Below are positions 1-21,735 of a stretch of 64,000 bases of DNA, piece after piece (positions within the stretch are counted from its first letter, which is position 1; each line of letters opens with the position of its first letter). The DNA lies in contig JAFRHS010000044.1 in the NCBI GenBank assembly GCA_017433225.1, forward strand, positions 28,317-92,316, in the 5' to 3' direction. A program made the position numbers and the translations under genes. Source of the stretch: Clostridia bacterium. GTDB taxonomy: Bacteria > Bacillota > Clostridia > Oscillospirales > Acutalibacteraceae. Under the pieces are notes generated by a model. It was not told the DNA's origin, ran no database searches, and worked only from the letters and a program-made list of their open reading frames with translations.

Positions 1-260
1 GGTTTAGGACTTTTCTTTTCCCTACCAGTTAATAAGAAGTCTGCAGAAACATTAAAGACCTCAGCCAATAATGACAGCGTATCAATCCCAGGGAGCATAT
101 CGTCATTACGATACTTTGAAAGAGTGCCCGCTCCAATGCCAATACGCCGCGCTATTTCCGCCTGGGAAATGCCTTTTTCTTTTTGCTTATTCAATTCATT
201 TTTCAACCGCTGGTTAAACTGCCCGCGGTCGAAATTGTAGGTTTCGCCTTTATGGCTCAT
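1..260 (-). CDS. XRE-family (cI-like) HTH repressor, first 86 codons; C-terminus lies left of the window
   Basis: Own reverse-strand translation from ATG 260-258: MSHKGETYNFDRGQFNQRLKNELNKQKEKGISQAEIARRIGIGAGTLSKYRNDDMLPGIDTLSLLAEVFNVSADFLLTGREKKSPK. HTH_3 pattern is present. Absent from the ORF track because there is no stop in the window. Divergent from a small HTH gene. Confidence 0.75.
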   Translation of the reverse strand, partial: MSHKGETYNFDRGQFNQRLKNELNKQKEKGISQAEIARRIGIGAGTLSKYRNDDMLPGIDTLSLLAEVFNVSADFLLTGREKKSPK

Positions 261-452
261 AGTCGTATCACCGTCCTTAAGGTGTTTCTCAAGGTAATAC
301 TACAGCAACAGCAACTATAAGTCAATCAAAGCATATATGCGTGTTTTGGAAATGTTTATTTTCTAAAATTTCTATTCCGTCAATATCGAATGGGCGATAC
401 AATGCGAGTGTAAGCAATAACAACAAAAAGCGAATAGAAAGAAGGTGAAACG

Positions 453-623
453 ATGCCAGGAGCAGAAGTAAAGCGGATGATCCTTGACGCAGGCCTGTAC
501 CTTTACCAGGTGGCAGATGAATTGGGGGTTACTGACAGCTGGTTCTCCAAAATGCTGCGCCACGACTTCACAGCCGAGGACACGGAGCGGGTCAAGGCTG
601 CCATTGAGAAACTGACCAAGTAA
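453..623 (+). CDS. Small cro-like HTH protein (56 aa)
   Basis: Own translation: MPGAEVKRMILDAGLYLYQVADELGVTDSWFSKMLRHDFTAEDTERVKAAIEKLTK. GAAGGTGA Shine-Dalgarno 5 nt upstream. Below the 60-aa cut-off of the ORF track. Divergent from the XRE repressor. Confidence 0.6.
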   Translation: MPGAEVKRMILDAGLYLYQVADELGVTDSWFSKMLRHDFTAEDTERVKAAIEKLTK

Positions 624-666
624 ACCAAAAAGCCCACAGCGGACCGCTGAGAGCATTTTAGAGGGG

Positions 667-1137
667 GTGCTTTTATTGTACTTGTATCACGCCACAAACT
701 CCGAAAGCGTCCCGGAAATTCTCGAAAAAGGGTTAATACCTAAAGGGCCTTTTAGCGCAGTGTGCTTTTCAACCAGTATTGCCGGGGCGTTAGGCGGAGC
801 AGAGTTTACGCGGATGTATAAACAAGCAGTTCGCCTTAACAAGATTTATTGTGATCCCTGCAGGGCCGCCGGGAGGAGGCCGCCGGAAATCTATCTATAT
901 GTTACGGTTTTTGCTGTTCCTTTTAGTGACATCGCGGAAAGGAAACACAAAAAAGTAGGCACGTATTGGGATGAGTGGCGCAGTTATGAGCCCGTCCCCG
1001 TGGCAGATTGTAAAAGGATGGATTATTACTATATCTCTGATCAAGACGGAGTATTCGAGCGGTGGTATAACCCAAAAGATGAAACAAACTGGGCAACAGA
1101 TATCACGCTTGAGCCCTCAGACTGGACTTCTGAGTAG
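667..1137 (+). CDS. Hypothetical island protein (156 aa); N-terminus weakly reminiscent of ADP-ribosyltransferase-fold proteins
   Basis: ORF track. LYHATNSESVPEILEKGLIP followed by CFSTS. The true start may be TTG at 676, 9 nt after GAGGGGG. No family securely recognised. Confidence 0.5.
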   Translation: MLLLYLYHATNSESVPEILEKGLIPKGPFSAVCFSTSIAGALGGAEFTRMYKQAVRLNKIYCDPCRAAGRRPPEIYLYVTVFAVPFSDIAERKHKKVGTYWDEWRSYEPVPVADCKRMDYYYISDQDGVFERWYNPKDETNWATDITLEPSDWTSE

Positions 1138-1354
1138 TGCGTCCATACGGAGCGGGACAAAGAGCGCCCGCGGGTAGGCATTCAGCTGGAACTTCATTTT
1201 CTGTTATGGTGTTCTGCCATTTCTCCATAGCAGGGTTACATTCATACAGTTGTTGCCTAAAAGGGAGTTTCATTGTCTCGGTCACAGTCAGCCTTTCTAT
1301 TGCCCGTCGTGCAATTAATAATCATTCCCGCGGGCGTTCTTTAGCCCGCTCCGT

Positions 1355-1454
1355 GAAAAAGAAAAGACCCTGGGAAAGCCCAGGGCGTAGTCATTAACAA
1401 TAGGTCGGACCCGCGGGAAGTGGTCCCCTATCGCCGTGCTTATCATAGCACAGA
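1355..1454 (-). ncRNA. Candidate ~100-nt countertranscript antisense to the leader of the xis-primase operon
   Basis: Minus-strand promoter TTGAAA (1489-1484), 16-17 nt spacer, CATAAT/ATAATA (1467-1461). Three hairpins follow at 1436-1451, 1400-1431 and 1368-1385, the last followed by a U-run (complement of 1355-1367). Confidence 0.3.
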
Positions 1455-1464
1455 AAGAGGTATT

Positions 1465-1671
1465 ATGCAAAAAGACAGAACCGTTTCAAACTGGGATAAA
1501 TTGCCAGTGGTTTTAGATGTCCACACCGTAGCACTTATCTTTGACGTTTCAGATCAGACCGTTAAGACCTGGTTACAAACCGGGAAACTGAAAGCCACAA
1601 AGGTTGCCCGCAAATGGGTCATTGACCGCGACTATATCCGTGGAATCGTTCAAGGGGGTGCGACTTTATGA
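1465..1671 (+). CDS. Excisionase-type (HTH_17/MerR-like) DNA-binding protein
   Basis: ATG 1465 lies 4 nt after AGAAAGAGG. LPVVLDVHTVALIFDVSDQTVKTWLQTGKLKATKVARKWVIDRDYI matches the excisionase-family HTH pattern. Its stop overlaps the next ATG (ATGA). Confidence 0.7.
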   Translation: MQKDRTVSNWDKLPVVLDVHTVALIFDVSDQTVKTWLQTGKLKATKVARKWVIDRDYIRGIVQGGATL

Positions 1672-2171
1672 GCGGCACAGGTATTGTAAGAGCCTACTTG
1701 GCGATGAACCCGGAAACCAGGAAAAGCGACTACGAATTGGCGCGGCGCGTCTATCACACTGTGGGTTACCGTTACGGTGTCACTAAGGCAGAAGTAGATG
1801 CTGCCATCGACACCCTGGAAAAGCTACACCCCACATTTAGGTCCATCATCCGGCTGCGGTCTGTTATCACCAGGAGCCACCCGGAATGGACAGACCCGGA
1901 AACGGAGAGAAAACGGAAAAAGAACGAACCAAAATACAGGGCCCGATACAGTAATGGCAAAGAGCCCGCGCCCCCTTATGAGATCCCGGCGGAGATCATA
2001 GCGCAAAACCGTGAGATCGAACTAACCAGGGTAATTATGATCCTTCTCACCCTGCAGATGCCCGGCTCCGCAATTAAGGCCGCAGTGGATGCTGTCAACA
2101 ATGAGCGATGCAGGCCCCCGTTGGATACAGACACTTTGACCCTTTTGTTTGATGGGAGCGGGATAGAATGA
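1668..2171 (+). CDS. Stand-alone PriCT-1-like domain protein (167 aa)
   Basis: C-terminal YEIPAEIIAQNREIELTRVIMILLTLQMPGSAIKAAVDAVNNERCRPPLDTDTLTLLF aligns with YEFPAEIVEGQRNSELYKAACSLLGRGLSETAARAALNAENLEKCSPPLDDAEIEQLF inside the 757-aa primase. Translationally coupled on both sides. Confidence 0.6.
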   Translation: MSGTGIVRAYLAMNPETRKSDYELARRVYHTVGYRYGVTKAEVDAAIDTLEKLHPTFRSIIRLRSVITRSHPEWTDPETERKRKKNEPKYRARYSNGKEPAPPYEIPAEIIAQNREIELTRVIMILLTLQMPGSAIKAAVDAVNNERCRPPLDTDTLTLLFDGSGIE

Positions 2172-2368
2172 GCACTAGCAGATGGGGCGAACACTGGGAA
2201 GATGAAGAAAACGAGGAAGGACTATCCCGGGGCCTTTTGGAAAGACGTTTCTTTGACGATGAAATACTGCCCGCATTCGCTGAGGAATACGACATAAACC
2301 TATATGACATAGAGGACCCGTCCGACTACTACGAGGATGCTATGGACTGGTACGACGATAATTATTAA
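2168..2368 (+). CDS. Hyper-acidic 66-aa protein (possible DNA mimic)
   Basis: By my count 23 of 66 residues are D/E, with only 4 R and no K. Aromatic-rich. ATGA overlap with the upstream gene. Confidence 0.55.
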   Translation: MSTSRWGEHWEDEENEEGLSRGLLERRFFDDEILPAFAEEYDINLYDIEDPSDYYEDAMDWYDDNY

Positions 2369-2421
2369 AGCAAAGGCGGCGGCTCAGGGCCGCTGCCTAT
2401 TTTTGAAAGAGGGTTGATGCA

Positions 2422-4695
2422 TTGAGCGATAACAAGATGAGGGACGCGGCCCTGGAATACGCCCAGGCAGGCTATGCGGTATTTCCCATTAAGGCAAAGG
2501 GTAAAACTCCGCTCATTAAGGAATGGCAAAAGAGAGCCACCACAGACAAAAACAAAATATCCAGCTGGTGGGACAAATGGCCCCAGGCCAACATCGCTAT
2601 AGCCTGTGGGCAGATGTCCCGCGGGCTGATCGTCATTGACGTAGATAAGAAATCCGGCGGCTTAGAAACAGTGGCGGACTGGGAGCGGGAAAACGGGACA
2701 CTAACCAGCTGCCAGCGGAGCATAACAGGCAGTGGCGGATTTCATTATTTTTACACTAGCAGGATATCAGATCAATACACCAATAAGGCGGGAGTATATC
2801 AAGGCGTAGACCTTAGAACAGATGGGGGTTATATCATTGCTCCCCCGTCATTACACCCCGGCGGCGGAGTGTATCAATGGGAAATGGATGCTATTACCGA
2901 TAACAGCCCCATAGAACTGAGCGGAACAGCGGAACAGTTCATAGAACCAGCATTAAAGGACTTTGACGATGGTATGCCCGCTCCGCATTATGAATTTCCG
3001 GCGGAGATCGTAGAGGGACAGCGAAACAGTGAACTGTATAAAGCCGCCTGCTCACTATTGGGGCGCGGTCTGAGTGAGACGGCGGCCCGGGCGGCACTTA
3101 ACGCGGAAAACTTGGAAAAGTGTTCCCCACCTTTAGACGATGCAGAAATAGAACAGCTTTTCAACAGTGCTGTTGCATTCATTAACTCTGATCGGTCCCG
3201 CTCCGCCGGGGCGGATCTTTCACGCGCAGCACTGGCAAGTGGCCTTGAACCCAGCGCCGACAAGTCCCCGCTAGATTATTCAGATATCGAACTGGTGTAC
3301 GTTCTTAATGAAATGAAAGTCAGCACGGACCGAAGGTATAACAGCCTGTCGGACATTGCCGCCGGGGCCCTGTTCAATTCCATATACGGTAAGTATCTGC
3401 GTTATAACACTACGGCCCGCGGGTGGTATTGGTACAACGGGATCAACTGGCAGCGGGACCGCACGGAGCGGGCGGAGAAGGCCGCGGAGACGCTTTCTAA
3501 TGCCTTGTACCATTATGCCGTGGGCCAGGGAGACGCTTATCAGAAACTAGCAGGCAGGCTGCAGGATATCAACAAAAGAGACAAAATGCTGAGGGATGCA
3601 CAAAAGCACAACCCCATTACCAGCGAAATGCTAGACCAAAAGCCGGACCTGTTCAACTGTAAGTGTGGAACATACAACCTCAAAACTCGCAAATGGAAAG
3701 ACCACGACCCGGCGGACCTTCTCAGCAAGTGCGCTAATGTCACGGAGCGGGACTGCCAGTATACAGACTTTGAAAAGGTCGTTACGCAAATACTCCCGGA
3801 CAAGGAAATAAGAGACTATTTCCAAATGGTCATTGGCCTGTGCCTATCTGAGGACACCACCCCGGCAGAGTTTTATATCATCTTGGGTGAAACCACCAGG
3901 AACGGAAAGTCAACTCTGTTAAATGCTATAGGGGCAATGATGGGAGACTACCATTTAACCATAGCGCCGGAAACGCTGGAAAAGGCAAACCGAGTAAATA
4001 GCAGCGGACCCAGCCCGGACAGATCGCGCTTTCAAGGTGCGCGGATGATCCACGCGGAAGAACCCCGGCGCGGTATGCCGTTAGACAGTGCATTTATCAA
4101 GGCTATAACAGGTGGCGATACAATGACCGCAAGGCAGCTACACCAAGAGCCCGTCTCTTTCCGGGTGGTTGGCAAGCTGGTCATTGTTACAAACCACCTG
4201 CCAGCCGTTTCCGATACAACCGTCTTTAGTTCGGAGCGGGTGGCAGTGATCCCGTTTGAGCAGCGTTTCATTGGCACGAAAAGAGACTACCACCTGCAGG
4301 AGCGAATGCGGAAACAGGAAATGCTTAACCAGTGTTTTTCCTGGGCGTGTGAAGGAAATCAAAAATACAGAAACGCAAAAGACTTCAAAACAAACAGACC
4401 AGCTGCCATAACTAAGCGAGTGGATCAATACCAGGCGGACAGCGACTATATAGGCCAGTTTATCAAGGACTGCATAAAGAAAGACCCGGAAGGCTGTATA
4501 AGATCCCAGGAATGTTACCACGCGTACAAGTATTGGTGTGAAGAAAACAACTGTAAACCGTTCGGCCCTAGAGCGTTCAATTCAGAATTGCGAGGGCCAC
4601 AAAGAGGACATTTGTTAAAGGACAGCGCAACAGTAGACGGTAAAACAGTAAGAAATGTTATCCCAGGTTATAGTCTGAAAGACAGTACGGGTTAA
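2422..4695 (+). CDS. Bifunctional primase-polymerase / PriCT / P4-D5-type helicase (phage-plasmid primase, P4 family)
   Basis: 757 aa. Prim-Pol motifs (GYAVFPI, LIVIDVDKK, GGFHYFY), a PriCT-1 segment and Walker A GETTRNGKST. TTG start 8 nt after AGAGGG; alternative ATG at 2437. Confidence 0.85.
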   Translation: MSDNKMRDAALEYAQAGYAVFPIKAKGKTPLIKEWQKRATTDKNKISSWWDKWPQANIAIACGQMSRGLIVIDVDKKSGGLETVADWERENGTLTSCQRSITGSGGFHYFYTSRISDQYTNKAGVYQGVDLRTDGGYIIAPPSLHPGGGVYQWEMDAITDNSPIELSGTAEQFIEPALKDFDDGMPAPHYEFPAEIVEGQRNSELYKAACSLLGRGLSETAARAALNAENLEKCSPPLDDAEIEQLFNSAVAFINSDRSRSAGADLSRAALASGLEPSADKSPLDYSDIELVYVLNEMKVSTDRRYNSLSDIAAGALFNSIYGKYLRYNTTARGWYWYNGINWQRDRTERAEKAAETLSNALYHYAVGQGDAYQKLAGRLQDINKRDKMLRDAQKHNPITSEMLDQKPDLFNCKCGTYNLKTRKWKDHDPADLLSKCANVTERDCQYTDFEKVVTQILPDKEIRDYFQMVIGLCLSEDTTPAEFYIILGETTRNGKSTLLNAIGAMMGDYHLTIAPETLEKANRVNSSGPSPDRSRFQGARMIHAEEPRRGMPLDSAFIKAITGGDTMTARQLHQEPVSFRVVGKLVIVTNHLPAVSDTTVFSSERVAVIPFEQRFIGTKRDYHLQERMRKQEMLNQCFSWACEGNQKYRNAKDFKTNRPAAITKRVDQYQADSDYIGQFIKDCIKKDPEGCIRSQECYHAYKYWCEENNCKPFGPRAFNSELRGPQRGHLLKDSATVDGKTVRNVIPGYSLKDSTG

Positions 4696-5598
4696 GAGAC
4701 ACTGAAAAAGCCGATTTTTCGCCTTTTCCAAAAACCACGTAGTTACGCCATTTGTGCAGTTTGTGCAGTTTAGTATCGTTTTTTCCCGGGAAAACAAAAT
4801 TAAAAAAAATATAGAATAAAACTGCACAAACTGCACATTTCAGCCTAATGAATATTATTCATTCGCTTATTTGCCGTAAAACAACGGTAAATTGTGTATG
4901 AATATGCAAAACAGCGCTTGTTTATGCATATATCCACCCTCTTTTATGCATAACTGCAGCTGGAGCGGGTGGAGAATTATACAAAATACGTCTTTTATCC
5001 TAAATGGTTTTAGGCGGCTCAGCTGCTAGCCGCCTGGGGCTGCTTATAGTACAGTGGATCAATCGCCCTGGGGTTCACAATATGATATTATTGCCATAGA
5101 CCCGTTAGGGTCGTATCAGCCTTTCTGTTTCCCGGTCCTGTATCGCCACAGGGCCGGGATCTCTTTTTAAGTTCGAACATATCGAACCTTTCTTTTTTTA
5201 GGGGCGCACCTTCCGCGAGATACTCCCCTTTTTTTGGGGCTGTATTATCTGACGATGCACCCCTTTTTTAGGGGCTCAGAAATGACGGAAAGCTCTTTTT
5301 AAGGTGGCAGGTATAGAAGGATGGCATTTCACGTAATGCCTGCCTACGGCCTTATTTGAGGCAATAATACACTTGCCCACTGCCCAGGCGGAATATAGGC
5401 AATACTTCAAAATGGGATCAAGTGGTATAACTTTGGTATAACTTTGTATACCAGTTTTTCCAGCACCGACGTAGTTACGCCGTTACCTGGGCTTGATTTT
5501 GGTATACATTTTGGTATACACCATAGCGAAAAATAGGGGCAAAGTACGATAAGTTGTACATTTTATTTTCTGATTTGGAAAAATAATATTTATGAAAA
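4696..5598. repeat. Non-coding iteron/inverted-repeat field, probable replication origin of the island
   Basis: Tandem TTTGTGCAG x2 (4751-4771) with an inverted copy at 4819-4837 around an AT-rich core. TTTATGCATA x2 (4921-4951). Five YCYTTTTT(T)AGGGGC-like units about 30-38 bp apart (5161-5300). Four GGTATA(A/C) units (5424-5522). Three ACGTAGTTACGC copies. Confidence 0.5.
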
Positions 5599-5638
5599 AA
5601 CGCTCAAAAACCACGTAGTTACGCGATTTTTGAGCGTT
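5593..5638 (-). terminator. Intrinsic terminator of tRNA-Pro
   Basis: 12-bp stem AACGCTCAAAAA/TTTTTGAGCGTT (5599-5610 / 5627-5638) with a 16-nt loop, followed on the minus strand by a U-run. Confidence 0.65.
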
Positions 5639-5644
5639 TCCTCT

Positions 5645-5720
5645 TGGTCCGAGTGGCGAGACTTGAACTCACGGCCTCTTGACCCCCAGTCAAGCGCGCT
5701 ACCAACTGCGCCACACCCGG
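5645..5720 (-). tRNA. tRNA-Pro (anticodon GGG), CCA encoded
   Basis: Hand-folded reverse complement: CCGGGTG TG GCGC AGTTGGTA GCGC G CTTGA CTGGGGG TCAAG AGGCC GTGAG TTCAAGT CTCGC CACTCGG A CCA. 76 nt. Confidence 0.9.
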
Positions 5721-9970: not shown

Positions 9971-9999
9971 TTGACAAAGACCGGGGTTATCACTATAAT
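9971..9999 (+). promoter_or_regulatory. Sigma-A-type promoter of tRNA-Leu(GAG)
   Basis: TTGACA (9971-9976), 17 nt spacer, TATAAT (9994-9999). Confidence 0.6.
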
Positions 10000-10038: not shown

Positions 10039-10123
10039 GCGAGAGTGGCGGAATTGGCAGACGCGCACGTTTGAGGGGCGTGTGGAGTGATTCGTACGGG
10101 TTCAAGTCCCGTCTCTCGCACCA
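10039..10123 (+). tRNA. tRNA-Leu (anticodon GAG), CCA encoded
   Basis: GCGAGAG TG GCGGAATTGGCAGACGC G CACGT TTGAGGG GCGTG, long variable arm, GGGTTCAAGTCCCGT CTCTCGC A CCA. Confidence 0.9.
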
Positions 10124-10129
10124 AAAAAT

Positions 10130-10159
10130 AGCCGACCCGTATGGGTCGGCTGTTTTTTT
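10130..10159 (+). terminator. Intrinsic terminator after tRNA-Leu(GAG)
   Basis: AGCCGACCC GTAT GGGTCGGCT followed by TTTTTTT. Confidence 0.8.
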
Positions 10160-10164
10160 GTCCT

Positions 10165-10289
10165 GACGGGACTTGAACCTTTAGGCCGGAGCGTTAAGAA
10201 AACAGCACGGTGGGCTGTTTTTAGCGACGGGAGGTGCGGCAGCACCTCGGTGCGGCTTGCGAAGCAAGACGCATCAAGTCCCGTCTCTC
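10165..10289 (+). repeat. tRNA-Leu-linked cassette A: conserved ~89-nt module flanked by an inverted and a direct copy of the tRNA T-arm/acceptor 3' segment
   Basis: GACGGGACTTGAACC (10165-10179) is the exact reverse complement of tRNA GGTTCAAGTCCCGTC. CAAGTCCCGTCTCTC (10275-10289) repeats the tRNA 3' part. The module is about nine-tenths identical to 21475-21563 by hand alignment. Confidence 0.6.
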
Positions 10290-10339
10290 TTATTATTTTT
10301 ATGCTATAATAGTCCCATCATCACGAAAGGAGGCCACCC

Positions 10340-11533
10340 ATGCTCAGTTTCCTGCTGCCGATCATCTACCTGGCATTCATCAGTCTGGGCCTTCCGGACT
10401 CGGTCCTCGGTTCTGCCTGGCCGACGATCTACCCGGAATTCGGCGTCCCGGTCTCCTACGCCGGCATCGTCTCGGCGATCATCGCCGTCGGCACCGTCAT
10501 CTCGAGCCTCCTCAGCGCCCGCCTCATCTCGGTCCTGAAGACCGGAGGCGTCACCGCCATCAGTGTCGCGATGACCGCCGCTGCGCTGTTCGGCTTCTCT
10601 CTCTGTCATTCTTTCTGGGCGCTCTGCCTGTGGGCGATCCCGTACGGCCTCGGCGCCGGCAGTGTCGACGCCGCCCTCAACAACTATGTCGCCATCCACT
10701 ACAAGAGCCACCACATGAGCTGGCTCCATTGCATGTGGGGCGTCGGCGCGACCGCCGGGCCCTATCTCATGGGACGCGTCCTGACCATGGGCCTGCCCTG
10801 GACCATGGGCTACCGCATGCTCAGTTTCTTCCAGATGGCGCTCGCTATCGTGCTCATCGTCGTCATCCCGCTGTGGAAAGCCGCCGATGATGAACGGGAA
10901 GAGGGAAAAGAGGAGGACTCGGACGAATCGCCCGAAGCTCCCTGGAAACCGCGTCCGCTCAAAGAGATCGTCCGTTTGCCGGGCGTCAAAGAGATCATGG
11001 TCGCGTTCTTCTGCTACTGCGGTCTCGAGTCCACCACCGGTCTCTGGACCGGCAGTTACCTGACCCTGCACACCGGTCTCACGAACGAAGCGGCGGCCAC
11101 GTTCACGAGCCTCGCGTTCCTCGGTATCACGATCGGCCGTGCCCTGAACGGCTTCCTGGCCTTCCGCTATAACGACGACCAGCTCATCCACCTCGGCGAG
11201 GGCATCATCGCATTCGGCGTCGCCATGCTGCTCGTCCCGACCGGGACCGAATGGTTCCAGCTGACCGCCATCATGCTCATCGGCCTCGGCTGCGCGCCGA
11301 TCTACCCCTGCATCATCCATTCGACGCCGGGCCATTTCGGCAAACGGGCATCCCAGGAGATCATCGGCGTCCAGATGGCCAGTGCCTATGTAGGCACCAC
11401 GGTCCTTCCGCCGCTGTTCGGCCTCATCGCCCAGCACATCAGTATCCGCCTGTGGCCGGTCTACCTGGCCCTGCTGCTGATCCTCATGTTCTTCATGTAT
11501 GAACGGGTCCGTTCCAGGACCGCCGAACAGTAA
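10340..11533 (+). CDS. MFS transporter
   Basis: 397 aa and highly hydrophobic, with roughly 12 predicted TM segments and a central charged loop (ADDEREEGKEEDSDESPE). GGAGG Shine-Dalgarno. Confidence 0.75.
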   Translation: MLSFLLPIIYLAFISLGLPDSVLGSAWPTIYPEFGVPVSYAGIVSAIIAVGTVISSLLSARLISVLKTGGVTAISVAMTAAALFGFSLCHSFWALCLWAIPYGLGAGSVDAALNNYVAIHYKSHHMSWLHCMWGVGATAGPYLMGRVLTMGLPWTMGYRMLSFFQMALAIVLIVVIPLWKAADDEREEGKEEDSDESPEAPWKPRPLKEIVRLPGVKEIMVAFFCYCGLESTTGLWTGSYLTLHTGLTNEAAATFTSLAFLGITIGRALNGFLAFRYNDDQLIHLGEGIIAFGVAMLLVPTGTEWFQLTAIMLIGLGCAPIYPCIIHSTPGHFGKRASQEIIGVQMASAYVGTTVLPPLFGLIAQHISIRLWPVYLALLLILMFFMYERVRSRTAEQ

Positions 11534-21342: not shown

Positions 21343-21429
21343 GCGGACGTGGCGGAATTGGCAGACGCGCTAGATTCAGGTTCTAGTGAATGCAAGTTCA
21401 TGTGGGTTCAAGTCCCGTCGTCCGCACCA
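21343..21429 (+). tRNA. tRNA-Leu (anticodon CAG), CCA encoded
   Basis: GCGGACG TG GCGGAATTGGCAGACGC G CTAGA TTCAGGT TCTAG, long variable arm, GGGTTCAAGTCCCGT CGTCCGC A CCA. Confidence 0.9.
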
Positions 21430-21471: not shown

Positions 21472-21474
21472 GCG

Positions 21475-21735
21475 GACAGGGACTTGAACCGAAGGCCGGA
21501 GCGTCAGGAAAACAGTCCGGTGGACTGTTTTTAGCGACGGGAGGTGCGGCAGCACTTCGGTGCAATTTCGCAAAGCGAAATTGCAGTACGGTCAGAAACA
21601 TAGTCGTCTCGCTCGCTTGGAGCGCGTCGCGATACTCCTTGTTTCTTCCTGTTCGACGACACTGCTTCATCTGCCGCAGGCAGCGCAGTGCCGCGAACCA
21701 AGTCCCGTCGTCCGCACGGCGGCAGTCCCGTCGTC
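21475..21735 (+). repeat. tRNA-Leu-linked cassette B: same conserved module, longer, with two further direct copies of the tRNA 3' segment
   Basis: GACAGGGACTTGAACC (21475-21490) is an inverted T-arm copy. The module runs to 21563. CAAGTCCCGTCGTCCGCAC (21699-21717) and AGTCCCGTCGTC (21724-21735) repeat this tRNA's own 3' end. Confidence 0.6.

Follow-up and report, generated by a model that had tools for sequence, protein, structure and literature searches.

What lies behind a bacterial tRNA gene once its terminator has been passed, and why should it carry copies of the tRNA itself? The question is raised by a Clostridia bacterium of the Acutalibacteraceae (contig JAFRHS010000044.1), where, in the 64-kb stretch of DNA analyzed here as a whole (hereafter the window), the tRNA-Leu(GAG) gene and its terminator are followed first by an inverted and then by a direct copy of the 3' part of that same tRNA. 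We found that small structured units of a widespread, uncatalogued family trail tRNA genes, and that one of them, partly decayed, occupies region 10160-10289. The layout of these units is an inverted copy of the T-arm (a', covering T-loop and T-stem and sometimes acceptor bases), a multi-hairpin module, a direct copy of the last 16-22 nucleotides (nt) of the tRNA in sense orientation (the direct repeat, DR), and usually a terminator. The explanation that we favor, at a probability of roughly one half, is that they are non-autonomous, protein-less structured units of about 100-250 nt, flanked by tRNA 3' ends and inserted duplicatively behind the tRNA terminator on the tRNA strand.

Two units behind leucine tRNA genes

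The unit behind tRNA-Leu(GAG) (hereafter W1; all features of this section are on the + strand) follows a gene at 10039-10123 that was identified with ARAGORN and Rfam, with the T-arm GGTTCAAGTCCCGTC at 10099-10113 and the 3' end ...TCTCGCACCA. Next comes the intrinsic terminator of this gene (term1, 10130-10159), whose stem (10130-10138 with 10143-10151) and T-run (10153-10159) are terminator-like, as the original prediction had stated. Both tRNA-derived repeats that it had described were confirmed as well: a' (GACGGGACTTGAACC, 10165-10179) matches the reverse complement of the T-arm (tRNA nt 52-66) with 0 mismatches, and DR (CAAGTCCCGTCTCTC, 10275-10289), separated from a' by 95 nt, is a direct copy of tRNA nt 56-70 that contains four acceptor bases unique to tRNA-Leu(GAG). 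With up to 2 mismatches allowed, 4 copies of the 15-mer were counted in the window vs 0.18 expected, and 4 copies were reached in 0 of 100 shuffles. Between the repeats, the 5' half of the module (10178-10233) comprises a small hairpin (P1a), a helix (P2), and a hairpin (P3, made of an A-run, CAGC..GCTG, and a T-run), then TAGCG; it is followed by the hairpin GAGGTGC-GGCA-GCACCTC (10231-10248), where the copy behind tRNA-Leu(CAG) has a G·T pair, one that can form on the + strand only, and by the hairpin P5 (10252-10272, tip GCGAAGC), which is kept in that copy with a different stem sequence. On both strands the W1 region folded much better than shuffles (z = -5.0 to -6.4), and in the predicted fold a' and DR are the 5' and 3' strands of the helix (P1) that closes a branched structure.

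The second carrier in the window, tRNA-Leu(CAG) (21343-21429), is followed by a unit (W2) with the same order of parts, namely terminator, a', module, and DR. Here a' (GCGGAC-A-GGGACTTGAACC, 21472-21490) also covers, in reverse complement, acceptor bases specific to tRNA-Leu(CAG), the module (21489-21698) is of a long form, and DR (21699-21717) copies tRNA-Leu(CAG) nt 56-74, with an additional partial copy at 21724-21735. The module had been proposed to be common to both tRNAs, and this held: ~70 nt of the W1 and W2 modules are roughly 90% identical, and the 28-mer TTTTTAGCGACGGGAGGTGCGGCAGCAC occurs exactly twice in the window (at 10218 and 21528) vs 0 expected. An extra structured domain of ~130 nt within the module is present in W2 (21563-21697), in the tRNA-Leu(GAG) unit of a relative (about 3045-3180 of locus L130), and in another locus, L131, and is missing from W1, which suggests that long and short forms interconvert by internal deletion or insertion. 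In both W1 and W2, a single long quasi-palindrome runs from the tRNA 3' part through the terminator to a'. W1 is a short, divergent form with a simple hairpin instead of the P4 domain, a DR that ends after 15 nt, and no second terminator, whereas relatives have a full copy reaching CCA plus a second terminator (e.g., nt 56-76 in the orthologue L130). The acceptor bases in a' of W2, the quasi-palindrome, the strand-specific fold, and an Escherichia coli analogue (the tyrT/rtT repeats) go beyond what had originally been noticed.

A family with a conserved fold

Searching named genomes with the seed pattern GGTTCAAGTCCC-N40-70-GGGACTTGAACC (i.e., a T-arm and an inverted T-arm) returned at least 120 loci, mostly from Clostridia (Oscillospiraceae, Acutalibacteraceae, Lachnospiraceae, Ruminococcus, Butyrivibrio, and Ruminiclostridium); other taxa among the matches listed were Coriobacteriia, Spirochaetes, Patescibacteria, Alphaproteobacteria, and Melainabacteria. 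Among the hosts are the cultured bacteria Ruminiclostridium cellobioparum subsp. termitidis CT1112 (locus L035) and Butyrivibrio proteoclasticus P18 (locus L044). Among the matches listed, a real tRNA lay on exactly one arm at 107 of 120 loci and on both arms at none of the 120, so the loci are not convergent tRNA genes; the carriers were mainly tRNA-Leu, with Phe, Pro, Asp, Arg, Met, Thr, and Ala also represented. Linkage to tRNAs, which the original prediction had left to be checked, was general, as every copy found was either tRNA-linked or joined to a displaced tRNA fragment.

The 107 database loci and the two window copies formed an oriented set of 109, of which 72 have a direct copy of their own tRNA 3' end (16-23 nt, beginning in the T-loop at tRNA positions ~55-61 and in most cases reaching CCA). 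The acceptor part of DR is always that of the adjacent tRNA in this set. Measured from a' to the end of DR, most units are 90-165 nt long, and the repeats often run on through the terminator; a terminator-like hairpin follows 57 of 69 DRs (83%), with 25 resembling the first terminator and 33 unrelated to it. The remaining oriented loci mostly consist of a' and a module that ends at a variable point, often the A-run before P3. Near-identical modules were seen on tRNA-Leu(CAG), tRNA-Leu(GAG), and tRNA-Pro(CGG) in three genomes (loci L048, L094, and L114), each with its own tail and with unrelated terminators. Two of the 37 other tRNAs in the fetched loci, examined for T-arms other than that of the seed, show the pattern too: a tRNA-Arg(CCG) with the T-arm GGTTCGAATCCT is followed by AGGATTCGAACC, i.e., a' matches a non-seed T-arm, and a tRNA-Gln has its own tail repeated over 19 nt at +179. 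We also observed two minimal units without a module (34 and 38 nt, at L042 and L039), in which only about 8-10 nt separate a' from the tRNA 3' copy, and which are either deletion products or a clue to the first origin of the inverted and direct pair.

The fold was then derived from the 21 units of the commonest type, which align to one consensus, GGGACTTGAACC-CTAAGAGGG-[P2]-GTTAAGAAAA-[P3]-TTTTTAGC-[P2']-GGTGCGCAG in the 5' half, continuing with ACG-GGGT-ACCG[hairpin]CGGT-CGTC-AAGCAGG-[P5]-GTCCC and a tRNA-specific tail. RNAalifold predicted 34 pairs in this alignment, 19 of them with compensatory changes, and 94.2% of the paired cells could pair, vs 81.5% in column shuffles (the observed value was reached in 0 of 500) and 34-48% with slid partners. 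There were 36 G·T cells vs 3 A·C cells, which indicates that the tRNA-sense (+) strand is the folding strand. The same asymmetry ruled out another candidate, a minus-strand RNA whose complement of the tRNA 3' 18 nt would resemble a primer-binding site. Hairpin tips are mostly C-GNA-G triloops (e.g., GCGAAGC), a type of unusual stability in DNA, and P1a has GNRA loops.

A covariance model of the module 5' half (R1), built from 19 foreign units and containing no a', DR, or window sequences, was run over the whole window with filters off, where it matched W1 (34.1 bits, E=1e-6) and W2 (39.5 bits, E=5e-8) and gave no other full match in the 64 kb. In the fetched loci it had 71 further matches, counting second copies and reverse-strand hairpin matches, and it had none at the empty-site locus L132 (see below) or at the E. 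coli locus. Both window copies belong to this family of tRNA-trailing structured units. Rfam 15, searched at the gathering score and at E up to 10, held no family for the module, giving only tRNA and chance hairpin matches, and in the literature we found no described family of such units, the rtT/rttR repeats of E. coli being the sole match. The units would form a strongly covarying structured family, one that Rfam lacks and that is common in gut and rumen Clostridia. Exact searches with a 23-mer and a 20-mer of the module gave 0 matches in genome, viral, and metagenome collections (sets without the host species), while a two-block module-specific pattern gave 0 viral loci and only 4 metagenome loci, all at tRNA-Leu genes and too few for a test of covariation between a' and the T-arm. 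A likeness of GGGUACCG to the T-box was rejected, as the bulge does not covary with the discriminator base; a T-box or another known cis-regulatory RNA was likewise set aside, there being no Rfam match and the downstream genes differing among loci.

The repeats behind tyrV in the E. coli tyrT operon were compared as locus L135 (K-12, NC_000913.3, 1286709-1287236; tyrV distal 178-bp repeats with rttR and tpr). We take the corresponding Rfam family, RtT, to be RF00391. In both systems, tandem units stand straight behind a tRNA gene on the same strand. Each 178-nt E. coli unit ends with tRNA-Tyr nt 58-76 (AATCCTTCCCCCACCACCA, 19 nt from the T-loop to CCA) and has an inverted T-stem/acceptor copy, GGGGAAGGAT, the reverse complement of ATCCTTCCCC; the minimum-free-energy fold is again a branched structure closed by the inverted copy and the terminal tRNA copy, and GCA/GAA triloop hairpins are present. 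This inverted copy is interrupted (GGGGAAGGAT...TTCGACC) and base-pairs, in every unit, with the 19 nt of tRNA sequence at the unit's end; we found no mention of it in the accessible literature. On the other hand, no similarity was detected in sequence or by covariance models (Rfam at the gathering score and at E up to 10; R1 on E. coli), E. coli has no intrinsic terminator between tRNA and unit, its inverted copy is not continuous, and its units hold a tiny open reading frame (ORF; tpr), while the family described here occurs at tRNAs of many species and in many taxa. The rtT repeats of E. coli are thus analogous, or at best very distantly related, and do not share an Rfam family with the units. 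The 178-bp repeats and rtT RNA of E. coli tyrT, an oddity for 45 years, would then be a single instance of something more general.

The E. coli unit behind tyrV encodes a small RNA, rttR (rtT RNA), within the tyrT operon (PMC3318445; bioRxiv 10.1101/2024.07.17.603846), and by analogy a transcript that reads through past the tRNA terminator is plausible here. This raises a different account, in which the unit would be a resident gene for a small structured RNA of the rtT kind, made when transcription passes the terminator and lengthens the tRNA precursor at its 3' side; tRNA 3'-end maturation would be recruited by the duplicated tRNA tail and terminator, and arrays and losses would come from unequal crossing-over only. 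The covariation across several helices, G·U pairs on the tRNA-sense strand only, the GNRA loops of P1a, and the presence of a terminator-like hairpin after 83% of DRs, even where it is unrelated to the first terminator, all speak for such a gene. Several features fit an RNA less well: no positional sigma-70 -10 signal was found at a fixed distance upstream of a', a strong terminator stands ahead of the unit and the terminator-like P3 within it, and the C-GNA-G tips are of the kind stabilized in DNA. Moreover, different module types can succeed each other at a single tRNA, and the copying of the T-loop by a' is left unexplained, since in the major type the T-loop part is outside P1. We regard this account as possible but doubtful; it is compatible with duplicative insertion and does not exclude it. 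The conserved single-strand fold could be that of an RNA or, by analogy with attC and CTX-phage sites, that of a folded single-stranded DNA substrate.

Presence, absence, and decay at orthologous loci

Orthologous loci with the gene order solute-binding protein, tRNA-Leu(GAG), MFS were found via homologues of the upstream solute-binding protein. Two of them (L130 and L131; flanking protein 93% identical) have the long form with the ~130-nt extra domain, a full DR through CCA, and a small second terminator. The next (L132, 90%) is a clean empty site, where the tRNA and its terminator are followed directly by the MFS promoter TATAAT. In L133 (87%), a' extends through the reverse complement of its own acceptor, the quasi-palindrome is nearly perfect, and the native flank directly adjoins the second terminator, itself a decayed version of the native terminator. 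The last (L134, 86%) has one unit and then a degenerate a' with a truncated module. All five lineages, filled or empty, have orthologous terminators next to the tRNA. An empty site had been the check proposed for an insertion-like unit, and its presence, together with the further copies in other genomes, shows that the segment is neither an invariant appendage of this tRNA nor confined to the two window loci; a discrete insertion-like unit bounded by tRNA-derived repeats, as first described, is what the comparison supports.

Taken together, the five loci suggest that the basic event sets a' and the module between two copies of the block formed by tRNA nt ~56-76 and the terminator, and recombination between two such copies would yield exactly the state of L132. 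Units are present or absent as a block among orthologous loci, and they accumulate in tandem with decay at the distal end. Arrays contain up to three units (L045, L067, and L107), module types are mixed at a single tRNA in some arrays (L053, L066, L103, and L116), and typically an intact unit is proximal to the tRNA with a decayed one distal (L018, L032, L040, and L128). One array behind a tRNA-Leu(GAG) (L078, 3147-6760) is interrupted by 3.4 kb in which an AraC-type regulator and a GFO/IDH/MocA oxidoreductase are encoded, and the point of interruption is the A-run before P3, as in many cut-off modules elsewhere.

The same loci bear on the gene downstream in the window, an MFS gene (10340-11533). 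Its -10 box, first placed at 10304-10309, is real and lies one position further on, at 10305-10310, where it is preceded by TGC (an extended -10, TGC-TATAAT). The DR of W1 does cover the position of the -35 region, as had been proposed, yet no -35 consensus is found there. Units bring terminators, and sometimes promoter-proximal sequence, beside tRNA genes and may reshape local transcription, as with the DR of W1 at the MFS -35 position. This coverage is what would speak for the unit being a cis-regulatory leader or promoter element of the MFS gene. We consider that extremely improbable: L132 retains an intact -10 box with its site empty, L133 has the unit and lacks the MFS gene, downstream genes vary among loci with no recurrent family, and units normally close with a terminator of their own. 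The tRNA-Leu(GAG) gene has its own promoter, a sigma-70 sequence at 9971-9999 (+ strand; TTGACA, 17-nt spacer, TATAAT) with 12 of 12 consensus matches.

Origin of the units and comparison with known elements

If the units are inserted duplicatively, as we favor, two routes would give the same geometry, with a' and the module ending up between the two copies of tRNA nt ~56-76 plus terminator. In the first, a small circle would recombine Campbell-style with the tRNA 3' part, from T-loop to CCA; a circle of this type would explain why the identity block starts in the T-loop, why extra terminators are present, why units accrete next to the tRNA, and why the empty site is precise. In the second, a replicative template switch or copy-choice event would re-prime on the tRNA T-arm. 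In either case, precise loss would occur by recombination between the two copies, the non-autonomous element would depend on an enzyme acting in trans, and the functional form would be a folded single strand in which P1, between a' and DR, closes the module and which could be either a recombination substrate or an RNA.

Several observations weigh against this explanation. First, no linked protein and no autonomous version was found, so the mechanism of mobility is entirely one that we infer. Second, the orthologous proximal terminators and the near-identical modules with unrelated terminators mean that a simple circle carrying its own tail and terminator is not sufficient; modules that move among tRNAs without their terminators are better accommodated by copy-choice or T-arm re-priming. 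Third, with four lineages filled and one empty, the state of L132 is by parsimony more likely a loss than ancestral, and no direct gain event was caught among the orthologous loci. Fourth, and as the chief caveat, the search used one T-arm seed and a spacing of 40-70 nt, which in part dictates how constant a' and its spacing from the tRNA appear. Finally, the lack of a fixed -10 before a' and the terminator-like P3 inside the module argue against a full-length independent RNA as the functional form.

A bolder and rather speculative extension, which we hold to be unlikely, would join the units and the E. coli rtT repeats as protein-less selfish elements across phyla whose ends are rewritten from the target at each insertion. 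The antisense and sense T-arm copies would pair and rebuild a duplex image of the tRNA gene, which would serve as the substrate for integration and excision at the tRNA 3' end, much as attC and CTX sites do, with a recombinase supplied in trans by the host or a prophage; alternatively, the element would exploit the pairing for re-priming at the tRNA gene and so copy the tail found there. If ends are indeed re-templated from the target tRNA, this would be a new mechanism of insertion.

The original prediction had read W1 as an att-flanked remnant or a non-autonomous element, and of these the non-autonomous element was partly right, whereas a remnant of an integrase cassette was not borne out. 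By the latter reading, an integrase-bearing island would have entered the T-loop and been deleted internally, leaving attL and attR behind as in a cis-mobilizable element (CIME). Identity blocks of tRNA-targeting integrases include those that begin in the T-loop and run towards CCA, as DR does, and real islands do use such sites, e.g., at a displaced tRNA fragment in L006 and an island-like element at a tRNA-Pro in the window (both described below). The resemblance to tRNA islands and CIMEs extends to a tRNA that is kept intact, tandem accretion with the newest unit beside the tRNA, and precise empty sites. However, the units here are 100-250 bp, gene-less, and marked by a strand-specific conserved fold and an inverted T-arm copy, and the empty site has an orthologue of their proximal terminator. 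A covarying fold of 100-160 nt, of the same size in more than 100 genomes, is not expected from random deletions, and no full-length island ending at the a' side and the DR side was seen. An all-against-all comparison of 975 ORFs from 105 loci found no family in more than 8 loci, the recurrent ones being ordinary syntenic genes; thus no integrase gene or remnant, reverse transcriptase, transposase, recombinase, or other recurrent family was found near the units in these 105 loci, and neither the viral collection nor a BLAST search of phage and plasmid collections with a typical unit gave a relevant match. We therefore judge an att remnant to be very improbable. Such units would systematically produce spurious att sites in the output of island finders built on repeats of tRNA fragments.

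MITEs (miniature inverted-repeat transposable elements), the other class first suggested, are also small and non-coding, with inverted termini (here 11-15 bp, GACGGGACTTG / CAAGTCCCGTC) and multiple copies per genome. This assignment did not hold: the termini of the units are copies of the neighboring tRNA, the repeats (16-23 nt) take in bases specific to the tRNA, no short target duplication of fixed length is present, copies dispersed away from tRNAs were not found, and no parent insertion sequence is known. The likeness to attC and to attP of CTX phage lies in a structure that is conserved over sequence and on one strand only, in inverted and direct target copies that pair to rebuild a duplex copy of the target, and in cassette-like arrays ending with a palindromic site. 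It differs in that no integron integrase or Xer context is found near the units, the cores agree with the attC consensus at 5 of 7 positions (by eye), and the fold is multi-branched rather than a bulged hairpin, with a single-stranded DNA state that is a predicted one. With tRNA-targeting islands, with attC sites, and with MITEs, the units have some features in common and not all.

Could the repeats instead be a by-product of a quasi-palindrome or template switch at the tRNA terminator hairpin, and hence neither an element nor a function? Such a process would leave the long quasi-palindrome seen in W1 and W2 and above all in L133, which takes in the tRNA 3' part, the terminator, and a', as well as the minimal units of L042 and L039 (a', about 8 nt, DR). 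It cannot, however, make a structurally constrained module that is common to different families and tRNA species, and could at best account for the origin of a'; as an explanation of the units as a whole we find it improbable.

Putative islands at tRNA genes were also noted. In L006 (3445-3900), a tRNA-Leu 3' fragment starting at G52 and lacking its 5' part is followed by two complete units, which is how the distal end of a conventional island would look if it had entered a tRNA already carrying units. In the window itself, a block of lower G+C content (positions 1-5640; 45-52% vs 56-61%) adjoins the 3' end of tRNA-Pro(GGG) (5645-5720, minus strand) and carries a Prim-Pol/PriCT/D5_N primase ORF (2422-4695); its appearance is that of an integrated island or a phage satellite, with the far end outside the window. 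Near its tRNA-proximal end, the 13-mer CACGTAGTTACGC occurs three times (at 4736, 5468, and 5612) vs 0.06 expected.

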